From the NCBI GenBank assembly GCA_964401135.1, contig CAYNXC010000002.1, positions 16,457-80,456 of the forward strand: a stretch of DNA of 64,000 bases, in the 5' to 3' direction. The position numbers were made by a program, and so were the translations under genes. The notes under the pieces are model-generated. The model worked only from the letters and a program-made list of their open reading frames with translations. It did not search any database and was not told where the DNA came from. Origin of the DNA: an uncultured Candidatus Saccharibacteria bacterium (lineage in GTDB: Bacteria > Patescibacteriota > Minisyncoccia > Phycocordibacterales > UBA9988). Below are positions 2,896-43,252 of the stretch, piece after piece (within the stretch, counting starts at the first letter, position 1; each line of letters starts with the position of its first letter).

Positions 2896-5463
<2,568 letters not shown>

Positions 5464-8431: not shown

Positions 8432-9331
8432 ATGTGGTTGATGGCAGAGACAGGTGCCCGGGAGGCGCTTACAGAAAAGATTTCCGCTGTGGAAGCACGG
8501 ATGGCCGACCCGCACTTTTGGGAGGACAAGGATCGTGCACAAGACTTGCTGAAGGAGTACAGTCAACTCAAACAAGAACTACGCGATCTGAATCCATACG
8601 ATAAGGGGAATGCGGTCTTAACCATCTTTGCCGGAGCCGGCGGAGATGATGCAGAAGATTTTGCCGCTCTGCTCTTTAACATGTACAGTCGCTTTGTCGC
8701 TCGTAAGGAGTGGAGTATCCGTACGCTCCATGAGAATGAAAATGACCACGGTGGCTACCGCAACATCACTGCAGAGATCAAAGGAGCGGGGGCCTACGGG
8801 ACACTTAAGCATGAGTCGGGAGTGCATCGGCTGGTGCGCATTTCGCCTTTCAACGCCAAAAAGCTCCGCCACACCTCATTTGTGATGGTTGAGGTGGTCC
8901 CGGAGTTCACTCGTGTGGAGGATGTAGAGATTCCAGAGAGCGATCTCACGATAGAGTATGCAAAGTCATCGGGGCCTGGCGGACAGAATGTGAATAAACG
9001 CGAGACTGCGGTGCGCATTGTCCACAACGCGACAGGACTCTCGGCTCACTGTGAGAGCGAACGCTCGCAGGCACAGAACAGAGAGAAGGCACTCGCCATC
9101 CTTCGTGGTAAACTCTATCGGAGGTTGGAAGATGAGCGAGTCGCCAAGGTGGAGAGTATGTACATCAGTAAGACGACGGATGCCGAGTGGGGCAATCAAA
9201 TCCGCTCGTATGTGCTCCATCCATACAAAATGGTGAAAGACCATCGGACTGAAGTGGAGACGCACAATGTGGATGCAGTACTTAGAGAAGGGGAGCTTGA
9301 TGAATTTATTGCCGCAGAACAAACACTATGA
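8432..9331 (+). CDS. prfB: Peptide chain release factor 2, short form (299 aa)
   Basis: SPF tripeptide (RISPFNAK), GGQ motif (SGPGGQNVNK); no in-frame extension possible upstream (stop at ~8387, tRNA ends 8381). Confidence 0.85.
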   Translation: MWLMAETGAREALTEKISAVEARMADPHFWEDKDRAQDLLKEYSQLKQELRDLNPYDKGNAVLTIFAGAGGDDAEDFAALLFNMYSRFVARKEWSIRTLHENENDHGGYRNITAEIKGAGAYGTLKHESGVHRLVRISPFNAKKLRHTSFVMVEVVPEFTRVEDVEIPESDLTIEYAKSSGPGGQNVNKRETAVRIVHNATGLSAHCESERSQAQNREKALAILRGKLYRRLEDERVAKVESMYISKTTDAEWGNQIRSYVLHPYKMVKDHRTEVETHNVDAVLREGELDEFIAAEQTL

Positions 9332-10008
9332 TTGTCTTTGATAAAGTAAGTAAGATATATTCAGACAATTCAAAGGCGCTTGATTGCGTCAGTTTTGAGA
9401 TTGAGTCAGGTGACTTTCTCTCTATTGTGGGGCAGTCTGGGGCAGGGAAGTCCACCCTCCTCAAACTTATTTTGGTAGAAGACGAGCCTAGCGATGGAAC
9501 TGTCTTTTTTGATAAAATTGATGTGCATAGGCTGACTCGCCGAGAACTCCCACACTTACGCAGACGCATAGGGTCAATCTTCCAAGACTTCCGACTTTTA
9601 CCAGACAAGACAGCCTATGAGAACATTGCCTTTGCCATGGAGGCGGCAGGGAGGAGTGATGAGGAAATCGAGTCTGATGTTCCGCATGCGCTTGATCTGG
9701 TGGGATTAAAGCAAAAAATTTGGAGCTTCCCCCGCGAGATGTCTGGAGGAGAGAAGCAGCGCGTAGCCATTGCTCGCGCTATCGTCAATCAACCTGATCT
9801 CATTATTGCAGATGAGCCGACAGGGAACTTAGATCCGCTTAACACCTTTGAAATTGTGCAGATCTTGAAAAAAATCAATGACCTCGGGACTACGGTCATT
9901 TTGACCACTCACAATAAAGGGGTCATTGATTCATTAAAAAAGCGCGTCATCACGCTTGAGAATGGTCGCATAGCGCGCGATGACTCACACGGTAAGTATG
10001 TACTATAA
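9328..10008 (+). CDS. ftsE: Cell division ABC ATPase FtsE
   Basis: Walker A GQSGAGKST, ABC signature LSGGEKQR, Walker B IIADEPTGNLD; ATG overlaps prfB stop (ATGA). Confidence 0.85.
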   Translation: MIVFDKVSKIYSDNSKALDCVSFEIESGDFLSIVGQSGAGKSTLLKLILVEDEPSDGTVFFDKIDVHRLTRRELPHLRRRIGSIFQDFRLLPDKTAYENIAFAMEAAGRSDEEIESDVPHALDLVGLKQKIWSFPREMSGGEKQRVAIARAIVNQPDLIIADEPTGNLDPLNTFEIVQILKKINDLGTTVILTTHNKGVIDSLKKRVITLENGRIARDDSHGKYVL

Positions 10009-31544: not shown

Positions 31545-32429
31545 ATGTACAAATCATACGATAGCAATGTGCGGATGACCTGGCTCTTAATGACAGTATT
31601 CTTGCTCGTGGTGATAGGGATTGGCTTCTCTTTTGCACAAGTCTACGGTGATCCGGCAATCCTCTACGGCGCAGTACTCTTTGCGCTCATAATGAACTTT
31701 TTCTCATACTGGTACTCGGACAAAATTGTGCTCTCTATCTCTGGTGCGCGCCCCGCAGATAAAGAGACCTACTGGGATCTCTACACGGTGACAGAGAATC
31801 TTGCCATCACTGCCGGCATCCCAATGCCAAAGCTCTATGTGATCCCCGATGCGGCACCGAATGCCTTTGCAACAGGGCGTAATAAGGAGCACGCGGCGGT
31901 TGCGGTGACGGAGGGGCTCCTGGGGATACTCAATCGGAGCGAGTTGGAAGGTGTGATTGCCCACGAGCTCTCGCATATAAAAAATCGCGACATTCTCCTC
32001 TCCACGATTGTAGTGGTGCTTGTTGGCTTTGTCTCCATTCTCTCCGATATGTTTTTGCGTGGTGCGGTCTGGGGTGGGGGAGATAGAGAGAATCGCGCTG
32101 GTGGCATCTTGGTACTTGCTGGCTTGATACTTGCAATACTTTCTCCCATTGCAGTGACACTCATCCAACTTGCTGTCTCGCGTAAACGAGAGTTCCTCGC
32201 CGATGCCTCTGGTGCGCTCCTCACGCGCTACCCTGAAGGGCTCGCGAGTGCGCTTAAAAAAATATCCAGTTACCCTGGCGAGCTCAAGAGTGCGCGGCAG
32301 GCAACAGCACACCTCTACATCAGCAATCCTTTTAGGGGAAAGCATGTCGCAAAACTTTTTATGACCCATCCGCCGGTAGAAGAGCGTATCCGTGCACTCA
32401 TGGGACTTAAAACCGAGGCCGAAGTTTAG
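31545..32429 (+). CDS. htpX: Zinc metalloprotease HtpX (M48)
   Basis: HELSHIKNRD zinc motif, 4 TMs. Confidence 0.85.
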   Translation: MYKSYDSNVRMTWLLMTVFLLVVIGIGFSFAQVYGDPAILYGAVLFALIMNFFSYWYSDKIVLSISGARPADKETYWDLYTVTENLAITAGIPMPKLYVIPDAAPNAFATGRNKEHAAVAVTEGLLGILNRSELEGVIAHELSHIKNRDILLSTIVVVLVGFVSILSDMFLRGAVWGGGDRENRAGGILVLAGLILAILSPIAVTLIQLAVSRKREFLADASGALLTRYPEGLASALKKISSYPGELKSARQATAHLYISNPFRGKHVAKLFMTHPPVEERIRALMGLKTEAEV

Positions 32430-32503
32430 CTTTGGGATGGTTGCGAGAGCATCAGATAAAAAGGTATAAAGGGGGAGAGGCGTTCAAACGCTTAATAAGC
32501 AAT

Positions 32504-32588
32504 GGAGGGGTCGCATAGAGGCCTAGTGCGCGCGCTTGGAAAGCGCGTAAGGGTTACACCTTCGAGGGTTCGAATCCCTCCCTCTCCG
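32504..32588 (+). tRNA. tRNA-Ser (GGA)
   Basis: GGAGGGGTCGCATAG... anticodon arm CGCGC-ttGGAaa-GCGCG, long variable arm, T arm GAGGGTTCGAATCCCTC, acceptor CCTCTCC. Confidence 0.85.
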
Positions 32589-32666
32589 CACTAAGAACCT
32601 GGTAGTTTTGTGACCCAAGTACCTAAGGTTGTAGGGCGACCCAGGTACCTAGTAATTACCTGGAAA

Positions 32667-33911
32667 ATGCCCGACGAATATCGCAATCATCATTACGTAC
32701 CACAGTGGTACCAAAAGAAGTTCATGCTACCGAACGAGCATGAGTTATTTCACTTGGATTTAAAACCCGAGACGTTCACCGATCCTCGCGGCGTGGTTCA
32801 TACCAAGAAGCCATTACGGCGACAAGGTAGTAAAAAGTGTTTCGTCCAAGAGGATCTTTATACGACGAAGATTCAAGGTATCGAAACAAAGGATATAGAG
32901 AAATATTTCTTCGGCGATATTGATACCAAAGGTCGTCCTGCTGTCGAATATTTCGAGGGGTTTGATTATCCCCTTAAACCCTGGGGTGAATCACTTCAGG
33001 ACATCATGCGTTACATGAGTACACAGAAGCTCAGGACTCCGAAAGGTCTATCATTTCTTAGCGAGAAAATTGGAAGTAAGGATAAGGACGCGATTCTACG
33101 CAATATGATCCGAGTGCGTAATGTTCATGCCGCTATTTGGATGGAATGCGTCTGGCTTATTGCAGACGCTTCACAGTCGGAGACTAAATTCATCATCTCA
33201 GACCATCCCGTTACTGTTTATAATCGTGAATGCGGTCCTCGATCCAGTTACTGTCGAGACTCAAATGACCCCGAGATATGGCTTCAAGGTACGCATACAA
33301 TTTTTCCACTTTCCATAGATAAGGTTCTCATTCTCACAAATTTATCCTGGGTGCGGAATCCATATCAATCCGCAACCAATCTACGACCGAATCCAAATCC
33401 ATACCGCAATGCGATATTCAAATTTACTGACGTTCAGGTTCGACGACAATTAAGTGAACAAGAGGTACGAGAAATCAATTTCATCATAAAAAGCCGAGCT
33501 TCCCGATATGTAGCCGCAGCCAAAGAAGAATGGCTTTACCCAGAAAGACATGTATCCAAATCAGATTGGAACAAATACGGTCATGGATATCTTTTGATGC
33601 CCGATCCTCGCGCTATTCATTGGGGAGGAACCATAATGTGGGGCGGTGGCCCAGGCGGTCCAGGTGCAATGGATGAATATGGAAGACTGCCCGGAGATCC
33701 TGATTTTGAAGCAGAGACAACCAAAGGTAAGGAGTACCAAACGCTCCCTTGGTTTCAGGGAGAATTTGCAAAGCTGTTCGGTCCTTATCGCCGAGGCCGT
33801 TGTATGCAACATATTGAAATTGAAAAGGAACGGGACGATGATGAATTTCACCAGTACCATCTCGGTCTTCAGAAAAAGAGCTATAAGGAACGACACGGCA
33901 AGAAGAAATAG
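32667..33911 (+). CDS. DUF4238 family protein (track ORF from GTG 32610)
   Basis: N-terminal HYVPQWYQKKF hallmark of DUF4238; ~415 aa with C-terminal extension. Confidence 0.6.
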   Translation: MPDEYRNHHYVPQWYQKKFMLPNEHELFHLDLKPETFTDPRGVVHTKKPLRRQGSKKCFVQEDLYTTKIQGIETKDIEKYFFGDIDTKGRPAVEYFEGFDYPLKPWGESLQDIMRYMSTQKLRTPKGLSFLSEKIGSKDKDAILRNMIRVRNVHAAIWMECVWLIADASQSETKFIISDHPVTVYNRECGPRSSYCRDSNDPEIWLQGTHTIFPLSIDKVLILTNLSWVRNPYQSATNLRPNPNPYRNAIFKFTDVQVRRQLSEQEVREINFIIKSRASRYVAAAKEEWLYPERHVSKSDWNKYGHGYLLMPDPRAIHWGGTIMWGGGPGGPGAMDEYGRLPGDPDFEAETTKGKEYQTLPWFQGEFAKLFGPYRRGRCMQHIEIEKERDDDEFHQYHLGLQKKSYKERHGKKK

Positions 33912-33914
33912 TTT

Positions 33915-35225
33915 TTAGTTGGAGTCCTCTGTAAGCAGAGTAATCTTCTTATCGTTCAGCACCAATCTGCTTCTTAGATGACCCATCAGTTCACGCTTCT
34001 CAAGCGGTGTACCCTCGCGGAGTACGTATTTTGCATATTCCTTTGTCGCAATATCGTCTTCATCGATCTGCATCTTGGGCTTGCCTTTGACCGCAAGTCT
34101 CTGCAATCTATTGAATCGCTTAATTTCTTCTTCGAGCTTCATCCGCATGCCAAGCTCGTTCATGGTGAGCTTGTCGATAATCTTGAATAGTTCCTCGACG
34201 AGTTCTTCCTCGCGGATATATTTGTTCTTGCAGTTCCTGTCTCTCGCTTTCGAGCAAGAGTAGTAGACGTACTTTGCATTCGTGCCATCTTTGAGCAGTT
34301 TGTATTTCTCCTGCGCCGTGATGCCCGATCCGCACATGCCACAGGTAAATAATTTGGTGAAGGCAAACTCTCTGTTCTCGCGCACAACTTTGTCGCGCTT
34401 CAATTGCTCCTGCACTTTCTTGAATAATTCCTCGCTGATTAGCGGCTCATGTGTTCCTTGATACCAGTTGCCGCTGTTCTTTGGATACTCGAATGGTCCG
34501 TAATAAATGGGCATCTGGAGCATGCGATATACACCAGAGAGTGTGAGTGGCTTGTTACCTCGCGTATAGAAGTTAAGCTCGAAACGGAGCCAGTTGTACA
34601 CTTTTCTACCGCTCCACAAATCGTATGCCACTTTTTCAAACATCTGCTTCACGATCGGTGCACGTTGCGGATCAATAACGATACGGCATTTCTTTTCTAT
34701 CAATTTCTGGTTGAGATATCCGAGCGGCGCCATGCCCGGCCACAACCCCATCTCCACTCTCGTTCTCAAACCTCGCTTCACGTTGATGCCCCGGTTGTCG
34801 TTCTCGAGCTTCGCCTGCGATCCAAGGATCATGAGGAGGAATTTTTCATTCGGATTATTAGTAAACTTTTGTCCGTAGGTGCGTATTTCCTTGAGCTTTC
34901 CAACGTCCATAAGATCGATCACTTTGCCGAGGTCGCCTGCGTTACGGCTGATGCGATCCGGCGCCCATGTGAGGATACCGTTGTATTTGTCATCCCTAAT
35001 TTCTTCGATGATCTCGTTAAATACAGGGCGCTGGCCAGTCTCCTTGGCGGAGTGAGATTCTCGCTTCATTGTCACAACTTCCAAATTTTCTCGCTCTGCT
35101 AGCTGGAGCATCTCCTTGATCTGGGAATCGATAGAAAGCGCCTGTCGTTCCTCCGCTTCGCTCGACTTGCGGGCATACAGGCAATATCTGATTGGTTTCT
35201 GTTCCTTTACGGTTGCGTTTTCCAT
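33915..35225 (-). CDS. Large serine recombinase (resolvase/invertase catalytic domain + recombinase domain + zinc ribbon)
   Basis: Catalytic Ser context YARKSSEAEE...SIDSQ, recombinase domain, CGMCGSGITAQEK...YYSCSKARDRNC zinc ribbon. Confidence 0.85.
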   Translation of the reverse strand: MENATVKEQKPIRYCLYARKSSEAEERQALSIDSQIKEMLQLAERENLEVVTMKRESHSAKETGQRPVFNEIIEEIRDDKYNGILTWAPDRISRNAGDLGKVIDLMDVGKLKEIRTYGQKFTNNPNEKFLLMILGSQAKLENDNRGINVKRGLRTRVEMGLWPGMAPLGYLNQKLIEKKCRIVIDPQRAPIVKQMFEKVAYDLWSGRKVYNWLRFELNFYTRGNKPLTLSGVYRMLQMPIYYGPFEYPKNSGNWYQGTHEPLISEELFKKVQEQLKRDKVVRENREFAFTKLFTCGMCGSGITAQEKYKLLKDGTNAKYVYYSCSKARDRNCKNKYIREEELVEELFKIIDKLTMNELGMRMKLEEEIKRFNRLQRLAVKGKPKMQIDEDDIATKEYAKYVLREGTPLEKRELMGHLRSRLVLNDKKITLLTEDSN

Positions 35226-35349
35226 GCATACACGAACATACCGGATACGGGTACGAAGTCTAGCCGCATACGAAACACAGAGCAGAAGCGGGAGGAAGTC
35301 AACTACACAAAAATCCCGAGGGAAGCTAAGGTCTTTTAGGGGGTGAGAA

Positions 35350-35562
35350 TTAAAAACTAATGAGATTGTTCACTTTAAGCCCTAGTGCTTTGGCGATCTT
35401 CTCCATGTTGGTGAGTGTAATGTTTTTCTCGGCACGTTCAATCATACCGATGTATGTCCTGTGGACTTTAGCCAACTGCCCTAAGCGCTCTTGAGAAATA
35501 TCGCGTTTCAGTCGTTCTTCTCGGACTCTTTTGCCAAATTGTATGAGAATAGTCTTGTTCAT
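35350..35562 (-). CDS. XRE-family HTH transcriptional regulator (Cro/CI-like)
   Basis: 70 aa, HTH_3 pattern LSQERLGQLAKVHRTYIGMIERAE. Confidence 0.8.
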   Translation of the reverse strand: MNKTILIQFGKRVREERLKRDISQERLGQLAKVHRTYIGMIERAEKNITLTNMEKIAKALGLKVNNLISF

Positions 35563-35661
35563 CTACACCGTTAAGTGTAGGAATTTGCTAACTTTGGTTC
35601 TATATACTATAGTTAGCATATATTCTTGAGAATTTTCATTGCAAAATTCTCGGGGGGGGGG
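35563..35661. promoter_or_regulatory. Divergent promoter/operator region with three inverted repeats and a G10 homopolymer
   Basis: ctacac-cgttaa-gtgtag; tgctaact-N17-agttagca; gagaatttt-cattgc-aaaattctc; then GGGGGGGGGG. Confidence 0.4.
35652..35661. repeat. Poly-G homopolymeric tract (10 G)
   Basis: ctcGGGGGGGGGGtaaaattgag ~20 nt upstream of ATG 35682. Confidence 0.85.
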
Positions 35662-36514
35662 TAAAATTGAGAACAATATTCATGAATAAAATCTTTAAAA
35701 GACTACTCGTATTTGCGGTACTATTTGCTCTTACTTCTTCGAATGTTTTTGCTGCAACTAAAACCTGGGACTTTTCCACTTCGTCGGACTACACTTTTGA
35801 TACTACTAAAATTGAAGTCATAGGAGGACAAGCACAATTGAAAGCTACAACAACTCCTGCTTGGTATGACACCAGTTGGAAATATAGAAAGAAAATATCA
35901 ATTGACCATACAAAAATATCGTCAGATTTAACAGATTTTCCTGTTCTCGTTAATCAAACTTCTGACTCAGACTTGGCAGCCAAAGCGTTAACGTCAGGTA
36001 ACGATATATTTTTCACTTCATCTGATGGAGTTACAAAACTAAGCCACGAAATAGAGACATATGCATCAACAACAGGAGCTTTAGCTGCATGGATTAAAGT
36101 TCCTACAGTATCCTCTTCTGTAGATACTGATGTTTATATGTATTATGGTAATGCTGCAGCTTCTGCTCAAGCGAATGCAAATGGAGTATGGGATAGTAAT
36201 TCAATTGTTGTTCAACATCTTAATGCTACTACTAGCCCAGCACTAGACTCAACATCTAATGCGAATAGTGGAGTTCAGTCTGGAGGAGTTACTTTCAGTG
36301 CAACAGGCAAGATAGGTAATGCTGTGAGCATGGACGGTGTTAATGACAAACTATCCTTAACAAGTAATAGTGGCTTAAACGCAACAGGCACCCTAAGTAT
36401 TAGTGCATGGGTAAATAGAACTGCATCGGGCAAGATGAGGGTAGTTGCAAAAACAGTTACTACTGGAACAACTGACAACCCATATGATTTTGGTATAAAT
36501 ACGGATAATACACT

Positions 36515-36522
36515 TTATTTAA
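36515..36522. repeat. 8-bp target site duplication TTATTTAA (left copy)
   Basis: Identical octamer abuts the outer ends of both terminal inverted repeats (right copy 39496..39503). Confidence 0.75.
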
Positions 36523-36548
36523 GGGAACTATATACAATGTTACCCTAA
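36523..36548. repeat. Left terminal inverted repeat of IS
   Basis: gggaactatatacaatgttaccctaa. Confidence 0.75.
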
Positions 36549-36551
36549 AAA

Positions 36552-37085
36552 TTAATTAGATTTTGGTTTGTCTAAATCTTCCAAAGAAAAGCCCAGGTCA
36601 GGAAAAATAAGATTTCTTAGATAAATACTCCCTGCAAAAAGAACGGTATTAATATCAACTCCAGACTGGAAAGCCCCTTGTTTGAGTGATTCTACAACAT
36701 CAGGACAATGTATTGGTAACTCCATCATTATCTCGGATATTACTTTCTCTGCATCATAAGGATTAGTCGTATTTTTACTTTGAACTAATTTTAGAAGTTC
36801 GTCTTTTTTTGCGTCAATAATTTCTTTAATTCCGCTATCATCTAAGATAGCTTGCCCTCTTGAGTTTAATTGTCGTGGAGAATTAGCAGGTGCAATTTTG
36901 TCTTTCCATAGAATATCCAGTTTAGGGAACATATCTGCCACTTTGGGTTTAATGTCTTTAATATCTTCCAGCATAAAATTTGTTCTTTCATCAATCCTCG
37001 CAATCAATTCACGAGTATTACCCAACAGGATAGCAGAAATCCAGTTACCTGCTTTTTTGGCTAAATTAAGGGCTTGTTGTTCCAT
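36552..37085 (-). CDS. Hypothetical protein (177 aa), passenger gene of the IS element, reading outward through the left IR
   Basis: ORF inside IS boundaries; no recognisable family. Confidence 0.5.
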   Translation of the reverse strand: MEQQALNLAKKAGNWISAILLGNTRELIARIDERTNFMLEDIKDIKPKVADMFPKLDILWKDKIAPANSPRQLNSRGQAILDDSGIKEIIDAKKDELLKLVQSKNTTNPYDAEKVISEIMMELPIHCPDVVESLKQGAFQSGVDINTVLFAGSIYLRNLIFPDLGFSLEDLDKPKSN

Positions 37086-37197
37086 AGGATTATTACATTA
37101 CTAGTATATCAAAACGGCTGTTGCAAGTTAATACTAGTCAAAAAGTTACCCCCAATTATTACTTGACAACCCTATTGTGATCGTATAAGCTATAGGT

Positions 37198-38115
37198 ATG
37201 GATAGCCGATACAAAACCTTGGTAGAGTTCCTCGCCCACTTTAAGGATGAGGAAACCTGTCAAAAATACTTTGAGCAAATCCGCTTCTCCCAAGGCGAGT
37301 ATTGCCCTCATTGTAACCACAGTAAAATCAACCGCTTTTCAGACGGCAAACGCTTTCGCTGTGCTAAGTGCAAAAAGGACTTCACTATTAAGACCAAGAC
37401 CGTCTTTGGCGAAAGCAAAATCTCAATGCAGAAATGGTTTGTCGCAATTTACCTTTTGTCCGTCAATAAGAAAGGCATTAGCTCTATTAACCTAGCCGAG
37501 CAAGTGGGCGTTACTCAAAAGACCGCGTGGTTTATGGATCATCGTATTCGTAAAGCCTTGAAACAAAATAGCGGTCAGTTGTTTGGCACAGTAGAAATAG
37601 ACGAAACCTATATCGGCGGCAAGGAAAAGAACAAGCACGCCCACAAGCGAACCAAGCGCACCCAAGGCCGAAACACTTTGACCAAAACCCCTGTAATGGG
37701 AATGATACAGCGAGGCGGTGCAATGAAAGCCAAAGTGATAGATAATGTAAAGATGCGAACCTTGGAAAGTCTGATTATTGAAAATGTAAAAATTGGGACA
37801 CAGCTCTACACAGACGAGTTTTTGTCTTACTCCAAAATCGGCAGTCTCTTTGCTCACGAGGCCGTGTCACACGGCAAAGGCCAGTATGTAAAAGGTGATA
37901 GCCACTCCAACACCGCCGAGAGTTTTTGGGCATTGTTTAAGCGTGGCTACTACGGCACTTACCACAACATGAGTAAGAAGCATTTGCAGAAGTATGTGGA
38001 CGAGTTCGTGTATCGCTTTAACAACCGAGCCGTGGAGCTAGCCGATGTATTCACTGATGTCGTGGCGAATGTAGCGGGTAGCGAGAAGCTGGCTTATAAG
38101 ACTCTTACCGCTTAA
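37198..38115 (+). CDS. IS1595-family (ISXO2-like) DDE transposase with N-terminal zinc finger
   Basis: CPHCNHSKINRFSDGKRFRCAKCKKDFT zinc ribbon; ISXO2-like transposase core. Confidence 0.85.
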   Translation: MDSRYKTLVEFLAHFKDEETCQKYFEQIRFSQGEYCPHCNHSKINRFSDGKRFRCAKCKKDFTIKTKTVFGESKISMQKWFVAIYLLSVNKKGISSINLAEQVGVTQKTAWFMDHRIRKALKQNSGQLFGTVEIDETYIGGKEKNKHAHKRTKRTQGRNTLTKTPVMGMIQRGGAMKAKVIDNVKMRTLESLIIENVKIGTQLYTDEFLSYSKIGSLFAHEAVSHGKGQYVKGDSHSNTAESFWALFKRGYYGTYHNMSKKHLQKYVDEFVYRFNNRAVELADVFTDVVANVAGSEKLAYKTLTA

Positions 38116-38116
38116 T

Positions 38117-39025
38117 ATGTCCCCACGAGAACGCAAATATCACGAGGGGTTAGGGGTAGACTTTAATCAAGCTCTTGTCTCTATTGCTGGTGAGAACCGA
38201 ACCGAGCGGAGTATCGCCGCCCGACCATTTCTAAAGTGGGTCGGTGGCAAGCGGTCAATCCTGCCAGAGCTTCTAAAGCGGTTGCCGACCAAGTATGACG
38301 CTTACCATGAGCTGTTTCTAGGCGGTGGTGCGTTGTACTTCGCCGTCCAGCCAGAGGAGGCTTATCTGTCTGATGTAAACTTCCACCTCATCCTTACTTT
38401 CAAGGCGGTGCGAGATGATCTGGACAGCTTAATCCGTCAGTTAAAAATCCACGAACGATTACACAACAAGGAATACTATCTCAAAGCTCGCCAGAAGCTC
38501 TTTAAGGAAAAGGACACCACCAAACTGGCGGCTCTCTTTATCTACCTCAATAAAACTTGCTTCAATGGTCTTTACCGAGTAAACAAGGGGGGTGGCTTCA
38601 ATGTCCCGATGGGCGACTACAAAGACCCAAACATTTTAGACGAGGAAAATCTGCGTAATGCTTCAAAGGTTTTAGCGACCGCCGAGATTAAACAGCACGG
38701 CTTTGAGCATACCAAAATCTACAAAGGCGACTTCTACTATCTTGACCCGCCCTATCACGAAACCTATAGCGGTTATGATGGCTCTGGCTTTGGCGATGAA
38801 CACCACCGCAAGCTCGCCGAGTTCTGCAAACAGATAGACCAAAAGGGCAGTTACTTTATGCTCTCCAACAGCGACACGCCATTTGTCAGAGAGTTATATA
38901 AGGGCTATACTATTGAGCAAGTAGAGGCTTCACGAAATGTCTCTTGCAAAGCCCACCAGCGAGGCAAAGAAAATGAGCTTATCATCCGAAACTACACCAA
39001 TAACGGGGGGCGGACAAGCCAATAA
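38117..39025 (+). CDS. DNA adenine methyltransferase, D12 class (Dam/DpnM-like)
   Basis: Motif I FLGGGALYF, catalytic DPPY (YYLDPPYHETYSGYDGSG); start 1 nt after transposase stop. Confidence 0.85.
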   Translation: MSPRERKYHEGLGVDFNQALVSIAGENRTERSIAARPFLKWVGGKRSILPELLKRLPTKYDAYHELFLGGGALYFAVQPEEAYLSDVNFHLILTFKAVRDDLDSLIRQLKIHERLHNKEYYLKARQKLFKEKDTTKLAALFIYLNKTCFNGLYRVNKGGGFNVPMGDYKDPNILDEENLRNASKVLATAEIKQHGFEHTKIYKGDFYYLDPPYHETYSGYDGSGFGDEHHRKLAEFCKQIDQKGSYFMLSNSDTPFVRELYKGYTIEQVEASRNVSCKAHQRGKENELIIRNYTNNGGRTSQ

Positions 39026-39473
39026 AACGGGCAGTGTTTTAGAGCTATTTATCAAGCGACTTTTAGAGGACAACGGCTACACCGCCTTTCCTAACCACAA
39101 AGCCCAGCTATTCGCCAATCGTAAAACTGTCGGTGGTAAGCAATACTCTACCCAAGTTCCTTGTGGTACGAGTATCTACGAAACCCAGCGTAAATGCGAC
39201 TTCTTGATCATGAACCAAGACAAGTTCCCCGATGGACTGGTGATTGAGTGCAAGTGGCAACAGTCTACTGGCTCGGTAGACGAGAAGTACCCTTTTACCT
39301 TGTTTAACATCATCAAGATCGGCGTGCCAACCATCATTCTGCTGGACGGCAACGGCTACAAAAAGGCGGCGATGAAGTGGTTAAAAGACCAAGTGAACCC
39401 ACAGAGAGCCTTAATCGGCGTTTACAATATGGCCGAGTTTCAAGCTATGGTAAATAAGGGGTTTTTAGGTTAG
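38973..39473 (+). CDS. Small PD-(D/E)xK nuclease, putative restriction endonuclease partner of the MTase (track ORF from 38937; start uncertain)
   Basis: CDFLIM...LVIECKWQ (D...E-x-K) core; overlaps MTase 3' end in another frame; stop codon lies within the IS right IR. Confidence 0.5.
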   Translation: MSLSSETTPITGGGQANKTGSVLELFIKRLLEDNGYTAFPNHKAQLFANRKTVGGKQYSTQVPCGTSIYETQRKCDFLIMNQDKFPDGLVIECKWQQSTGSVDEKYPFTLFNIIKIGVPTIILLDGNGYKKAAMKWLKDQVNPQRALIGVYNMAEFQAMVNKGFLG

Positions 39474-39495
39474 GGTAACTTTGTATATAATTCCC
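39470..39495. repeat. Right terminal inverted repeat of IS
   Basis: ttagggtaactttgtatataattccc. Confidence 0.75.
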
Positions 39496-39503
39496 TTATT
39501 TAA
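39496..39503. repeat. 8-bp target site duplication TTATTTAA (right copy)
   Basis: Matches 36515..36522. Confidence 0.75.
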
Positions 39504-42190
39504 ATCGTGCAGATTCAAGTGTTGTAAATTTTCTATCAAGTTCAACAACTGTACCGACAAATTCATGGACAAAAATTGAAGTAATTGATGACACTGTCGT
39601 TAAAAGTGCTTTCAACAGCGTCTCAAAATTAGTCACCCTAGCGACATCTACAAGAGCGTGGCAGGGGGTAGCAAGTGATGGGACTTATATCTATGCAATT
39701 GGACAAAATGCTATTTCGCAGTTTGATATGCAAGGTAATTTTATAAAAGAAAAGAATAATGTATACAGTGGTTTTACTGGTGGCAACATCCTAGGTAATG
39801 GAACAGTAATTAATGGAAAGTTATATGTCGGGGCATATAATGCGAATACTTTAGGAGCGTCAACAAATCCTAATTACACTCCGTTATCAGATCTTCAATC
39901 AAAAATTGCTGTCTTTAGCCTATCTGATTTTTCATTAATTGAAGATTTTAACCTTGGTACTCAAGTAAAAATTGCTGAGGGTGTTGATTATCACAATGGT
40001 TACTTTTGGGTAGTTGATGGATGGTTTGATACTTTCGTCGTAAAAAAATACGATACTAGTTTTAATTTAGTCTCTACGTATAGCTTGCCTGTAGCAAATG
40101 CTTTCGCTGGAGAATTAACATACCAAAATATTAATTGGTATGGGAATGACATTTTTGTTAATTGGCATGGCTCAAATTCTTTTGGACAAACCTATGCTTA
40201 TGGGTTGGATCATTATTCTTTTGACGGAACAAATTTTAATTTTGTAGAACGATTAAGACCAGTAACATATGGTGCAGGTCAAGGTATTGCAATTGTCGGA
40301 AATACGTTTTATTGGGCAGATAGACCTGGAAATGCGATCTACAAATCAACATATGTTGGAGCTGGAAATGGTGATGATGGTATTGATCCATCACATACAA
40401 AATTTTTCATAAATGGAGTTGGTGAGCTTGCTCATGTAAGTACTGGCTCTCTCACTGTGCTTTCACCTACAAGTAATACCAGTCCAACGGTTATTGGAAC
40501 TAGGGGCGATTCAAGTAGTTTTTATAAAGGTGTCATAGATGAAGTTCGAATTTCAAATGCGGCAAGATCAGATGCATGGGTCTCGGCAAGTTACGCCAAT
40601 GAAAACTCACCAAGTACATTCTATTCGATGGGTTCGGAACAAAAAAATTATGCAGCTACTAACCCGACTGTTAATCCCACATCATTAAATGCGCAAGCCT
40701 TCTCATCCCTGTCAGGCTTTTCAGCAGTTGAAGTAAGTAATGGAGGAAATATAAAGTATCAAGTTTCAAATGATGGAGGAACCACATGGTATTGGTACAA
40801 CTCTGGCTGGAATACAACAACTTCAGGATACTCTGAGACAAATGCATCTTCAACTATAAATACAAATATCGCTTCTTTACCTGTAGGAAGTGGATCATAC
40901 TTATTTAAAGCATATTTAAATTCTGATGGAACGCAGCAACCTCAGATAGACAGTGTGGTGCTCACATACTCTGCGCCACTTGATATTACAGCTCCTATTA
41001 TATCTGCGATAGCGTCTTCTACATCCCAAACTTCAGCAACTATTACCTGGACGACCGATGAATCAGCCACATCAACGGTAAATTATGGTCTTAACACTTC
41101 ATACGGTACAGCGTCATCCTCATCATCTCTCGTTACCTCTCATTCGATATCCTTGTCAGGATTAACCGCATCAACCGCATACCATTTCCAAGTAGCATCA
41201 GCTGACGCTTCTGGAAACGTTGCAACTTCTTCAGACTATACATTCACCACAACAGCAGTGCCTGACACAACGCCTCCGGTCATTTCATCAATTTCTTCCG
41301 GTTCACTTTCAACTTCAGGAACAACTATAACTTGGACCACTGATGAAGCTGCGGATTCCCAAGTTAACTACGGCACAAGTGCCTCATATGGATCACAGAC
41401 GACCCTTGATTCAACACTAGTGACGAGTCACTCCATTGTAATTTCAGGTCTTTCTGCAGGAACGACGTATCACTACCAAGTAGTGTCAAAAGATGCTTCT
41501 GGAAACACAGCTACATCTTCTGACCAAACCTTTACCACTTCAGCACAGCCTTCGAGCGGGGGTTCATCAAGCGGATCATATTCCGGAGGAGGCTCAATCC
41601 TTATCCAACCTTCTGTGCCGGGCTGTCCTACAGGATTCAATTGTGTAGTAAATCCAACCCCTACCATTTTACCAAATACTTTTACTCGTGATCTCACCAT
41701 AAAAAGTACTGGTAGTGATGTGAAGGTATTGCAGCAGTTCCTGATCGCTAAAGGCTTTCTTGCGAGCGGCAATGACACGGGATACTTTGGTCCTCTGACG
41801 CAAGCTGCTCTCGCGCAATACCAGCTTTCGATGGGTATTAAACCATCGGTTGGATATTTCGGCTCACTTACTCGTGCAGTCATTGCTGTCTCGCAGAACA
41901 TATCACCTACTACTCCATCAATATCAACAAATCCGACGGTACTTCCAAGCACGTTTACTCGAGATCTGTATTTCGGCATGAGTGGAGACGATGTAAAACT
42001 CTTGCAAAAGTTCCTTAATGACCATCAATTTATAGTCAGCCAAACTGGCGCAGGATCTCCAGGACTTGAATCAAATTATTTCGGCCCAGCCACCCGAGAC
42101 GCCCTTATTCGTTTTCAGACTTACAATCACATAGTCCCTGCAGTAGGGTATTTTGGTTCGCTTACACGCCAATTCGTAAATGGTCAGTAG
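39504..42190 (+). CDS. 3' portion of the IS-disrupted surface protein gene: LamG C-terminal part, two Fn3 domains, Ser/Gly linker, two C-terminal peptidoglycan-binding (PG_binding_1-like) domains; first in-frame ATG at 39728
   Basis: Frame stays open from 39491 upstream of the ATG (…LNRADSSVVNFLSSSTTVPTNSWTKIEV…); GVIDEVRISNAARSDAWV LamG end; TWTTDE...TYHYQV Fn3 x2; GYFGPLTQAALAQYQ PGBD x2. Confidence 0.7.
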
Positions 42191-42233
42191 GAGTGGATAA
42201 CCCGACTACACAAATCTAAAGAAGGAAGCTAAG

Positions 42234-42596
42234 TTACTTACGTTCGTCCTCAGGCCATGGCTTTGGGCCGAACATCTCGTCGATCTTCTTGATCTCGTCT
42301 TCTGTAAGTTCGCGCTTCGGAGGCCGTTCCGGTACTGGGTCTCCTTTGTACTTCGGCGGCTTTCCGTCCATATGCTCCCAGATGAGCTTGATCATCCGAT
42401 GATCGCCGTCCAGTGCCATCCTTATGATTTTCTCAACCAACGCATCTGCAATAGTCTTGTCTTTATCACTCACAATCCTTTTACTGAGTATCTCTTGGAA
42501 TTGGCTCGTTAGTGTTTTGCCCGGAGGCCTTCCGTTCAAGTTTCTTCTCGGGTCGAATCCGCTTTGGAATGGCTTGAGGTTATTGATGTTGCCCAT
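42234..42596 (-). CDS. Small basic protein with N-terminal MGNINNLKPFQSGFDPRRNLNGRPPG motif (DUF5681/phage-like); paralog A
   Basis: 121 aa from internal ATG of track ORF 42234..42689; shares motif and architecture with the upstream paralog. Confidence 0.5.
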   Translation of the reverse strand: MGNINNLKPFQSGFDPRRNLNGRPPGKTLTSQFQEILSKRIVSDKDKTIADALVEKIIRMALDGDHRMIKLIWEHMDGKPPKYKGDPVPERPPKRELTEDEIKKIDEMFGPKPWPEDERK

Positions 42597-42945
42597 GGTC
42601 GTTTCGTTTAAAATACTTCTCAAAATCCGCCTGTTCTTCGGGCGTGTACTCGACCTTTTCTTGCGGTACAAATGGGGTAGGTACCACAAACTCGTCAGGC
42701 ACCTTGCCGTCCACTTGGTCGATGACCATACTCATGGCTTTCAGGTTGCCCTTGGCCGCCTTCCACACAAGCTGCATTACGATAGCCTTATCCTTCCGTG
42801 CCATCTTGCCGTTGAAGTAGACTTTCTCCTTCAATATTTCCATAATCACGGTTCTCACATTCCGAGAACCCTTCGGTCTACCCTTGGTATTCCTTCTTGG
42901 ATCGTACCCTGATTGAAAGGGCTTCAATGTTTTTATATTTCCCAT
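42580..42945 (-). CDS. Small basic protein with N-terminal MGNIKTLKPFQSGYDPRRNTKGRPKG motif; paralog B
   Basis: 121 aa from internal ATG of track ORF 42580..43098; 3' end overlaps the start of paralog A. Confidence 0.5.
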   Translation of the reverse strand: MGNIKTLKPFQSGYDPRRNTKGRPKGSRNVRTVIMEILKEKVYFNGKMARKDKAIVMQLVWKAAKGNLKAMSMVIDQVDGKVPDEFVVPTPFVPQEKVEYTPEEQADFEKYFKRNDHGQHQ

Positions 42946-43252
42946 ATCTGGTATTTTACCGGCTTTTTTGTTTGTAAAGGGGTGCATTACTTTCTCGCAG
43001 TTATTTTCACAGATAAAAGGGTGAAAAACGGCTTCTTTTAAGCCTTCGATTTTTCCCGTAATTTCACAGTATTTACGGGTATTTTGACCCCGACCCACAA
43101 ACCTCCTTCGGCTTCCCGAAAAAGTGCTAGAATACCCTTACGACACCTAATCATATGGGTACCGTACCCATAGCCCCCGCAAATTGAAACTTCCTGTTCC
43201 GAAAGCCGAATTGACCGTTGCATGAATAGTATTATCGTCCTAATATATATAC

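Follow-up and report, generated by a model that had tools for sequence, protein, structure and literature searches.

The window analysed here, a stretch of 64,000 nucleotides from an uncultured Candidatus Saccharibacteria bacterium, carries an integrated mobile element at positions 32590–43180, directly behind a tRNA-Ser(GGA) gene. The element is 10.6 kb long, or 7.6 kb without an insertion sequence (IS) acquired later, and encodes a large serine recombinase (LSR). A single cargo gene, for a DUF4238 protein, lies between the tRNA gene and the LSR gene, in a place where related elements hold known anti-phage systems. The element, its boundaries and its LSR-mediated integration at tRNA-Ser are considered highly probable. 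An earlier note, made from the letters of this stretch alone, had listed a tRNA-Ser gene, a DUF4238 gene, a convergent LSR gene and an XRE regulator gene, and all four were recovered in the same positions with ARAGORN and Pfam.

Target site and boundaries of the element

The integration target is the tRNA-Ser(GGA) gene (32504–32589, forward strand), which was identified with ARAGORN, constitutes the left half of attB and is complete after the insertion. Its 3′ terminus reads ...CCCTCTCCGC. A second copy of the element is present in contig L001, which was retrieved by exact look-up of the DUF4238 protein in its ATG form of 414 amino acids (aa); exact look-ups with a 433-aa form starting at GTG and with HtpX gave no match. 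L001 and the window are 99.85% identical over 32568–36522 and 39487–43183, and both flanks are different. On the left, the element follows tRNA-Ser(TGA) in L001 and tRNA-Ser(GGA) in the window. The tRNA bodies differ, and the identity begins at the tRNA end (...tCCGCactaag), with the attL junction core CCGC at 32586–32589; CCGCA is common with attR. On the right, both copies end in ...catagcccCCGC and continue into unrelated flanks. The window equals L001 up to ...CATAGCCCCCGC and then diverges, the attR junction core CCGC being located at 43177–43180. The same element has moved between two tRNA-Ser genes.

The empty site was found by exact look-up of the cupin protein encoded just to the right of the island. 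In five contigs from five other sequencing runs (L091, L092, L094, L096 and L097), which start with cgagggttcgaatccctccctctCCGCaaattgaaac..., the last 27 nt of the tRNA-Ser gene are fused to the sequence from 43181 onward. The junctions are ...ctctCCGCActaag at attL and ...gcccCCGCAaattg at attR, and attB is recovered as ...ctctCCGCaaattg. Only 4–5 bp (CCGC/CCGCA) are common to both junctions, and no tRNA fragment extends beyond CCGC at the right end. Two further contigs, L088 and L090, are 99.98% identical to the window, belong to the same genome and contain the island. Since the empty site exists and the same element stands behind tRNA-Ser(TGA) in L001, the segment 32590–43180 is an integrated mobile element. 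The earlier note had outlined a defence and mobility island from tRNA-Ser to about 43.2 kb and had proposed a comparison with related genomes; the L001 copy and the empty sites in five other samples bear out this island to the nucleotide. The short crossover core that it expected is present as CCGC at both junctions.

The same junction is used by other elements. In contigs L093 (1–27) and L095 (1–30), the unrelated element ends ...gttcgaattttgtacaatgaataCCGC and ...tacattcgaacttcgtccaatacacaCCGC are joined to the same flank at the same CCGC, and therefore different elements use the same site. At least three of them compete for this tRNA-Ser(GGA) gene. The alternative that the segment is a conserved part of the core genome, next to the tRNA gene by coincidence, could draw on one related genome (L006/L010) in which LemA-DUF2207-HtpX ... 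tRNA-Ser-DUF4238-LSR occur in a similar neighbourhood, but the empty sites of five samples, the identical element at another tRNA-Ser gene and the different elements at the same junction leave it practically no probability, and the empty-site contigs refute it.

As a separate observation, the element ends in L093 and L095 contain TTCGAA about 15–20 nt from the core, resembling the tRNA T-loop on the attB side.

The large serine recombinase and its relatives

The LSR gene (33915–35225, reverse strand) encodes a protein of 436 aa with the Resolvase, Recombinase and Zn_ribbon_recom domains, all above the Pfam cut-offs, in line with the earlier naming of this convergent open reading frame (ORF) as a large serine recombinase. 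In PHROGs, it matches the integrase family phrog_95 (E = 3.7e-65). The residues Y17, R19 and S21 of the Y-x-R-x-S motif are invariant in nine relatives, and its closest matches of known structure are SPbeta YokA and the A118 integrase. The three domains, the short crossover core and the lack of long direct repeats are those of a serine integrase. The IS-free copy in L001 (7.6 kb) comprises six genes, encoding the DUF4238 protein, the LSR, the XRE regulator, a DUF2341/LamG/fn3/PG_binding protein of 1175 aa and two small DUF5681-type proteins. The LSR is the sole recombinase among them, and no tyrosine recombinase was found in this set of six. We infer that the LSR is the integrase, because it is the only recombinase in a delimited element and its clade is associated with tRNA genes throughout. 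The 4–5 bp junction and the lack of a displaced tRNA fragment are predicted by serine-recombinase exchange, unlike the usual tRNA island of a tyrosine integrase. The LSR would thus catalyse integration between attP and attB, presumably with a crossover inside CCGC.

The association with tRNA genes was examined with an alignment of nine LSRs of the clade, scanned against metagenome contigs; the best 80 relatives, with 63–90% identity, were analysed. The 3′ end of a tRNA-Ser gene faces the LSR gene in 38 of the 61 loci with at least 1 kb of downstream sequence. This count comprises 25 of the 40 loci whose downstream sequence reaches at least 3 kb and 13 of the 21 with 1–3 kb. No tRNA-Ser gene was found in 297 kb of sequence upstream of the LSR relatives. 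Four standard anticodons of tRNA-Ser are used (gct, gga, tga and cga), and two more genes are labelled act by ARAGORN. The genes upstream of the LSR in the sister elements mostly belong to restriction-modification (R-M) systems.

On predicted viral contigs, 62 LSR relatives with 44–85% identity were found. The closer ones face tRNA-Ser, and the distant ones (44–60% identity) face tRNA-Gln, Glu, Asp, Trp and Asn. In five of the ten viral-contig relatives examined, TerS/TerL and a ParB-methylase are encoded just upstream of the LSR, and the subset of sister elements with TerS, TerL and ParB-methylase genes are probably prophages. A trio of same-strand ORFs (about 440, about 150 and 440–530 aa) is situated directly before the LSR gene, 1.5–4 kb upstream, in loci L137, L145, L152, L155, L163, L177, L189, L192 and L203. 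Pooled family counts suggest that the trio encodes a ParB-N6_N4 methylase, a TerS-like HTH_Tnp_1_2 protein and TerL; with this assignment, the integrase would adjoin a packaging module in the prophage members.

These relatives raise the question of whether the window element itself is a decayed prophage or phage satellite, with the LSR as a phage integrase, the DUF4238 protein as a superinfection exclusion factor and the DUF5681 and PG-binding proteins as remnants of packaging and lysis functions. Besides the relatives on viral contigs and the packaging genes next to half of those examined, a match of one DUF5681 protein to a PHROG of unknown function and matches of the surface-protein C-terminus to endolysin PHROGs through its PG_binding domain speak for this origin. 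The delimited 7.6-kb element, however, contains no capsid, terminase, portal or replication gene, and the 414-aa DUF4238 subfamily is rare on viral contigs (10 relatives with 36–44% identity among 2.9 million contigs). Such an origin seems unlikely, and it refines the explanation by an LSR-borne defence island more than it competes with it.

A variable cargo slot between the tRNA and LSR genes

The distance between the LSR stop codon and the tRNA gene varies from 100 bp to 5.8 kb across the sister loci. This slot contains 0 to 10 ORFs, in total 85 ORFs over 38 loci, with very few repeated families; some slots are empty (100–170 bp), and others carry unrelated genes. According to Pfam and PADLOC, the slot ORFs encode Shedu SduA (three cases), type IV restriction enzymes (two), a complete QatABCD system, AriAB, a ThsB-type TIR protein, TOTE/E1-E2 components, PbeA (two), a type IIG restriction-modification enzyme, a KAP NTPase, PD-Lambda-3_B and DUF4238 proteins (two). 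Recognised defence systems that vary from slot to slot characterise the slot as a defence hotspot, of which the DUF4238 gene is one interchangeable occupant.

Viewed from the LSR, only one of the 80 relatives (L141) has a DUF4238 gene in its slot. Viewed from DUF4238, an LSR of the clade is encoded nearby in 12 of 80 genomes and is the sole recurring neighbour; in nine of the 12, the LSR gene converges on the DUF4238 gene and lies no more than about 400 bp from its stop, the two stops being a few bases apart in most cases. The latter view could indicate that DUF4238 is a working partner of the LSR, a factor for directionality or for recognition of the tRNA target, which would explain the tail-to-tail genes. 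DUF4238 genes also often follow a tRNA 3′ end even where no LSR is present. Against this, the other slots of the LSR relatives are empty or filled with unrelated genes, most DUF4238 loci have neither LSR nor tRNA, and genomes that lack this LSR, among them Pseudomonas and Vreelandella, also encode members of the family. A working partnership is therefore very improbable, and an obligatory one is rejected, since 79 of the 80 LSR relatives lack DUF4238.

The DUF4238 protein

Between attL and the LSR gene, the only cargo is the DUF4238 gene (32667–33911, forward strand), which encodes a member of a separate, long, 414-aa subfamily of Pfam PF14022. The match (E = 5.2e-17; 62.6 bits against a cut-off of 27) covers profile positions 1–280 of 281 and spans residues 26–306 of the 433-aa ORF with a GTG start, or about 7–287 of the 414-aa protein. 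The family assignment of the earlier note thus passed its profile check; its 433-aa reading did not stand. All 108 aligned homologues start with MxxEYRNHHYVP, and the database copy has 414 aa, so the ATG at 32667 is the gene start; the GTG at 32610 lies inside the attachment-site arm.

Homologues are numerous (2400), and the 120 listed are 58–100% identical to the window protein. In species-representative genomes, 511 relatives with 47–95% identity were found, in taxa as far apart as Patescibacteria, Pseudomonas and Vreelandella. Alignment columns average 64% identity, which includes a C-terminal part of about 195 residues. This part (about 220–414, with MPDPR, DEYGR and GEFAxLFGPYRRGR motifs and a basic tail) is conserved as strongly across phyla as the DUF4238 domain. 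The AlphaFold2 model of the protein is confident, with a mean predicted local distance difference test score of 90.3 and a predicted template modelling (TM) score of 0.92. A Foldseek search of the PDB with this model revealed no structural relative (best E 0.41, TM ≤ 0.12), and a PDB sequence search with the family profile returned nothing; among viral models, the sole Foldseek match is a protein of the P2-like Stenotrophomonas phage Smp131. PHROGs and NCBIfam gave no match to the protein.

The DUF4238 protein with validated anti-phage activity is a 308-aa protein of E. coli TA007, encoded in a P2 prophage hotspot, which confers strong protection against T7 by an unknown mechanism (Rousset et al. 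2022, PMC9122126). BLASTP aligned it with the window protein at 28% identity over 87 residues, and the conserved C-terminal part described above has no counterpart in it. The slot context and this distant homology, rather than orthology, make a stand-alone anti-phage function of the window protein the favoured reading, by a modest balance of probability.

Several results count against such a function. PADLOC at E ≤ 0.01 and at E ≤ 10 gave no match to the 414-aa protein, including the DUF4238-Pers model (PDLC03000); the negative is genuine, since that model is part of the collection and recognises the validated E. coli protein with 718 bits. The hhalign comparison with the validated protein reached a probability of 86.7% over window residues 5–218 only. 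Neither a catalytic motif nor a known fold could be assigned to the protein by the searches listed. Outside LSR elements, the immediate neighbours of the 414-aa subfamily include scattered GajB, UG13b reverse transcriptase, CBASS effector and AriAB genes, a raw tally without a background rate. The placing of the protein in DUF4238 by the earlier note holds for the Pfam family but not for the subfamily with demonstrated anti-phage activity.

A maintenance (addiction) toxin, or another function that benefits the element, would suit the conservation of the protein, which is unusually strong for a defence gene at the identities given above, as well as its failure to match the validated-subfamily model or any known fold. 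However, the gene is placed where sister elements carry recognised defence systems, it stands alone with no antitoxin-like partner, and a homologous domain is anti-phage in experiments (PMC9122126). A role outside defence is therefore regarded as unlikely.

The attL arm

The element-side arm of attL (P′ arm; 32590–32666, forward strand) contains two direct repeats. The near-repeats pointed out previously between the tRNA and the DUF4238 gene, GACCCAAGTACCTA at 32612–32625 and GACCCAGGTACCTA at 32638–32651, are real: the expectation is 0.03 matches, two were found, and 100 shuffles never gave as many. In most of the 38 sister loci, inspection by eye reveals a related arm, approximately of the form (A/T)GACAAyTTAGTATCGG-N-GACCCrAGTrCCT, directly after the tRNA-Ser 3′ end; the near-repeats represent this arm in the window. 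The arm is independent of the cargo gene that follows, and a second GACCC copy is often seen about 25–28 nt further on. The arm is likely to be the element half of attL, and the GACCC repeats may be protein-binding sites of the attachment arm. When the two element arms and attB were inspected visually for inverted symmetry, only the weak, offset similarities ACCCA...TAGG and TTCGAA/TTCCGAA were noticed; as these are weak and offset, no half-sites are claimed.

The closest genome copies of the DUF4238 gene, with 95% amino-acid identity, are found in L008 (10001–11239) and L009 (238–1589) and have no LSR context. In L009, a decayed tRNA-like fragment and a TGACAATTTAGTA arm precede the gene, and therefore the DUF4238 gene seems to travel with a piece of the attachment arm. 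In two other loci, L040 (about 9330–10000) and L046 (about 2940–3445), a second, partial tRNA-Gln 3′ end lies just upstream of DUF4238. Between the full tRNA-Gln gene and this fragment there is a small cassette, HicAB-like in L040 and GIY-YIG-like in L046 by translated reading only. This layout suggests tandem accretion of elements at one tRNA gene.

Other genes of the island and the IS1595-family insertion

A regulator of 70 aa from the XRE/HTH_3 family (35350–35562, reverse strand; Pfam HTH_3, E = 2.4e-13) is encoded upstream of the LSR. Its closest profile is that of an R-M controller (C) protein (PADLOC Control_protein, E = 1.5e-21), but the gene adjoins the LSR gene, not an R-M operon. 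A role as the controller of the R-M genes borne by the IS was rejected, as the IS-free copies keep the XRE gene. The proposal that the LSR is driven from this gene fits the gene arrangement; it gained nothing from a promoter and terminator scan of 32400–35800, in which five promoter-like sites were found against 5.4 expected, a number not above chance, or from tblastn with the window XRE protein, which detected no copy of it next to the LSR genes of sister elements. A perfect 8-bp inverted repeat, TGCTAACT-N17-AGTTAGCA (35586–35618), read from the sequence where the XRE and surface-protein genes diverge, is a candidate operator.

The surface-protein gene (DUF2341/LamG/fn3/PG_binding, 1175 aa when intact; forward strand) is split into a 5′ part at 35682–36522, with the Pfam DUF2341 match, and a 3′ part at 39496–42190, which is collinear with L001 4063–6759. 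It is uninterrupted in L001, L088 and L090. Two small genes follow on the reverse strand: a DUF5681-like gene of 79 aa (42234–42473; called in L001, with a Pfam DUF5681 match of E = 1.3e-5, below the cut-off) and a DUF5681 gene of 135 aa (42580–42987; 36.5 bits against a cut-off of 27.5), the latter being the one that matches a PHROG, phrog_26239.

The interruption is caused by an IS1595-family element with passenger genes (36523–39495, forward strand; 2973 bp), flanked by an 8-bp target duplication, TTATTTAA, at 36515–36522 and 39496–39503. Its terminal inverted repeats match in 24 of 26 positions. The transposase gene (37198–38115) encodes DDE_Tnp_IS1595 with an N-terminal zinc ribbon (149.6 bits in Pfam, 199.6 bits in NCBIfam). 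Together with the terminal inverted repeats and the 8-bp duplication, this places the insertion in the IS1595 family and agrees with the downstream R-M-carrying IS described previously. The passengers are a Dam-family D12 methyltransferase (38117–39025) and a PDDEXK_11 nuclease (38937–39473), both with profile matches above the cut-offs, and an ORF of 177 aa (36552–37085, reverse strand) for which Pfam, PADLOC, PHROGs and NCBIfam returned nothing. The IS is missing in L001, L088 and L090, where the contigs read straight through the site. It varies between strains, and the insertion is recent, because copies of the same genome (L088, L090) exist without it.

The G+C content inside the island is 0.36–0.42 at 35–37 kb and 39–41 kb, against about 0.47–0.52 in the flanks, which is consistent with acquisition of the surface-protein gene and the IS from a foreign source.

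Proposed model

In the model proposed, strand exchange by the LSR within CCGC(A) would place the element at the very last bases of tRNA-Ser(GGA), so that the tRNA stays complete. The family of the element occurs mainly in Patescibacteria-like genomes and in predicted phages or prophages. Its LSR gene points towards the 3′ end of a tRNA gene, which is tRNA-Ser in close relatives and another tRNA in those further away. The region from the tRNA junction to the LSR stop serves as a variable cargo slot, occupied in sister elements by known anti-phage systems and in the window by one 414-aa DUF4238 gene, most likely stand-alone anti-phage or anti-mobile-element cargo.

Three observations do not favour this model. 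An exact search of viral contigs for the predicted attP junction, CATAGCCCCCGCACTAAGAACC, gave no matches, and no excised circle was found among these contigs. The element has no replication, packaging or transfer genes that would account for its movement between cells. Clear inverted symmetry is not seen in the attachment-site arms, whose repeats are direct rather than inverted and of uncertain role.

The joint reading is that of an LSR clade specialised on tRNA 3′ ends (Ser in close relatives; Gln, Glu, Asp, Trp and Asn in distant ones), which builds small defence islands and prophages in Patescibacteria, with a hotspot between tRNA and LSR, and of DUF4238 as a new stand-alone anti-phage protein, conserved unusually well over more than 10 phyla and with a confidently predicted fold that has no solved relative. 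In this full form, the reading is tentative and falls slightly short of an even chance.

Significance

The value of the region lies in the delimited serine-integrase element at tRNA-Ser, its family and the defence slot, more than in the DUF4238 label. Defence islands in tRNA genes are usually attributed to tyrosine integrases; here, a delimited element points to an LSR acting on the last bases of tRNA-Ser, and the same geometry is seen in about 40 LSR relatives. The concrete attP/attB pair is a candidate integration tool. The simple rule of tRNA-Ser, slot and LSR would allow candidate defence genes to be harvested from Patescibacteria. If the reading of the LSR clade and its hotspot is true, the many unannotated slot genes would offer new defence systems of a largely uncultured phylum that defence catalogues cover poorly. 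The name Rst_DUF4238, used in the earlier note, is not transferable to the 414-aa subfamily by homology alone.

Comparison with known systems

Mobile defence islands that occupy tRNA genes and contain a variable hotspot are well known from P2/P4 and from tyrosine integrases; what is unusual here is the type of integrase. Earlier descriptions beyond the literature covered are possible. Like the defence hotspots of P2 and P4, the slot has a fixed position, is surrounded by conserved genes of the element and holds a different defence system in each copy. Unlike them, it is located between attL at the tRNA and a serine integrase, occurs mostly in Patescibacteria-like genomes, and many of its carriers have no phage structural genes. 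With the Rst_DUF4238 system (DUF4238-Pers in PADLOC), the cargo protein shares PF14022, the N-terminal HH(Y/F)(V/L)xQxY and the SD(H/N)P motifs, and the state of a single gene in the variable hotspot of an integrated element. It differs in its length (414 aa against 308 aa) and in the conserved C-terminal 195 or so residues, which are present only here; its anti-phage activity is a prediction. The IS resembles other IS1595-family elements with passengers in its transposase with a zinc ribbon, 8-bp duplication and terminal inverted repeats of about 26 bp, and is distinguished from them by a complete pair of a Dam-type methylase and a PDDEXK nuclease, together with the 177-aa ORF.

Tyrosine-integrase islands of the Islander/TIGER type likewise target the 3′ end of a tRNA gene, leave the tRNA intact and carry cargo genes. 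The element described here has no tyrosine integrase, no displaced tRNA fragment and a junction identity of only 4–5 bp. A standard resource knows of no serine integrase that targets tRNA genes (PMC4383910), and tRNA is not mentioned anywhere in a large survey of LSRs (PMC10083194). A precedent is given by the filamentous phages phiRSM of Ralstonia, which use a small serine recombinase and in which attP and attB are the 13-nt 3′ end of tRNA-Ser(UCG), ACCCTCTCCGCCA (PMC3816273). There, too, a serine-family recombinase acts on the terminal stretch of tRNA-Ser. The phiRSM enzyme, however, is of the resolvase/invertase type and works with a 13-bp core in an inovirus, whereas the present family comprises a three-domain LSR, a core of 4–5 bp, cargo islands and predicted tailed-phage genomes.

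Tycheposons of Prochlorococcus reportedly integrate at tRNA genes. In the part of the preprint available, 27 of 937 elements contain an LSR instead of a tyrosine recombinase, and tRNA genes are labelled on the element maps (bioRxiv 10.1101/2020.12.28.424599). They belong to another phylum, tyrosine recombinases dominate among them, and the same part of that source describes neither DUF4238 nor a defined defence slot adjacent to an LSR. As far as that part of the preprint goes, tycheposons and the present element are alike in being small, cargo-carrying elements of streamlined genomes, and the LSR-bearing minority of tycheposons represents a second precedent for the element at tRNA-Ser(GGA).

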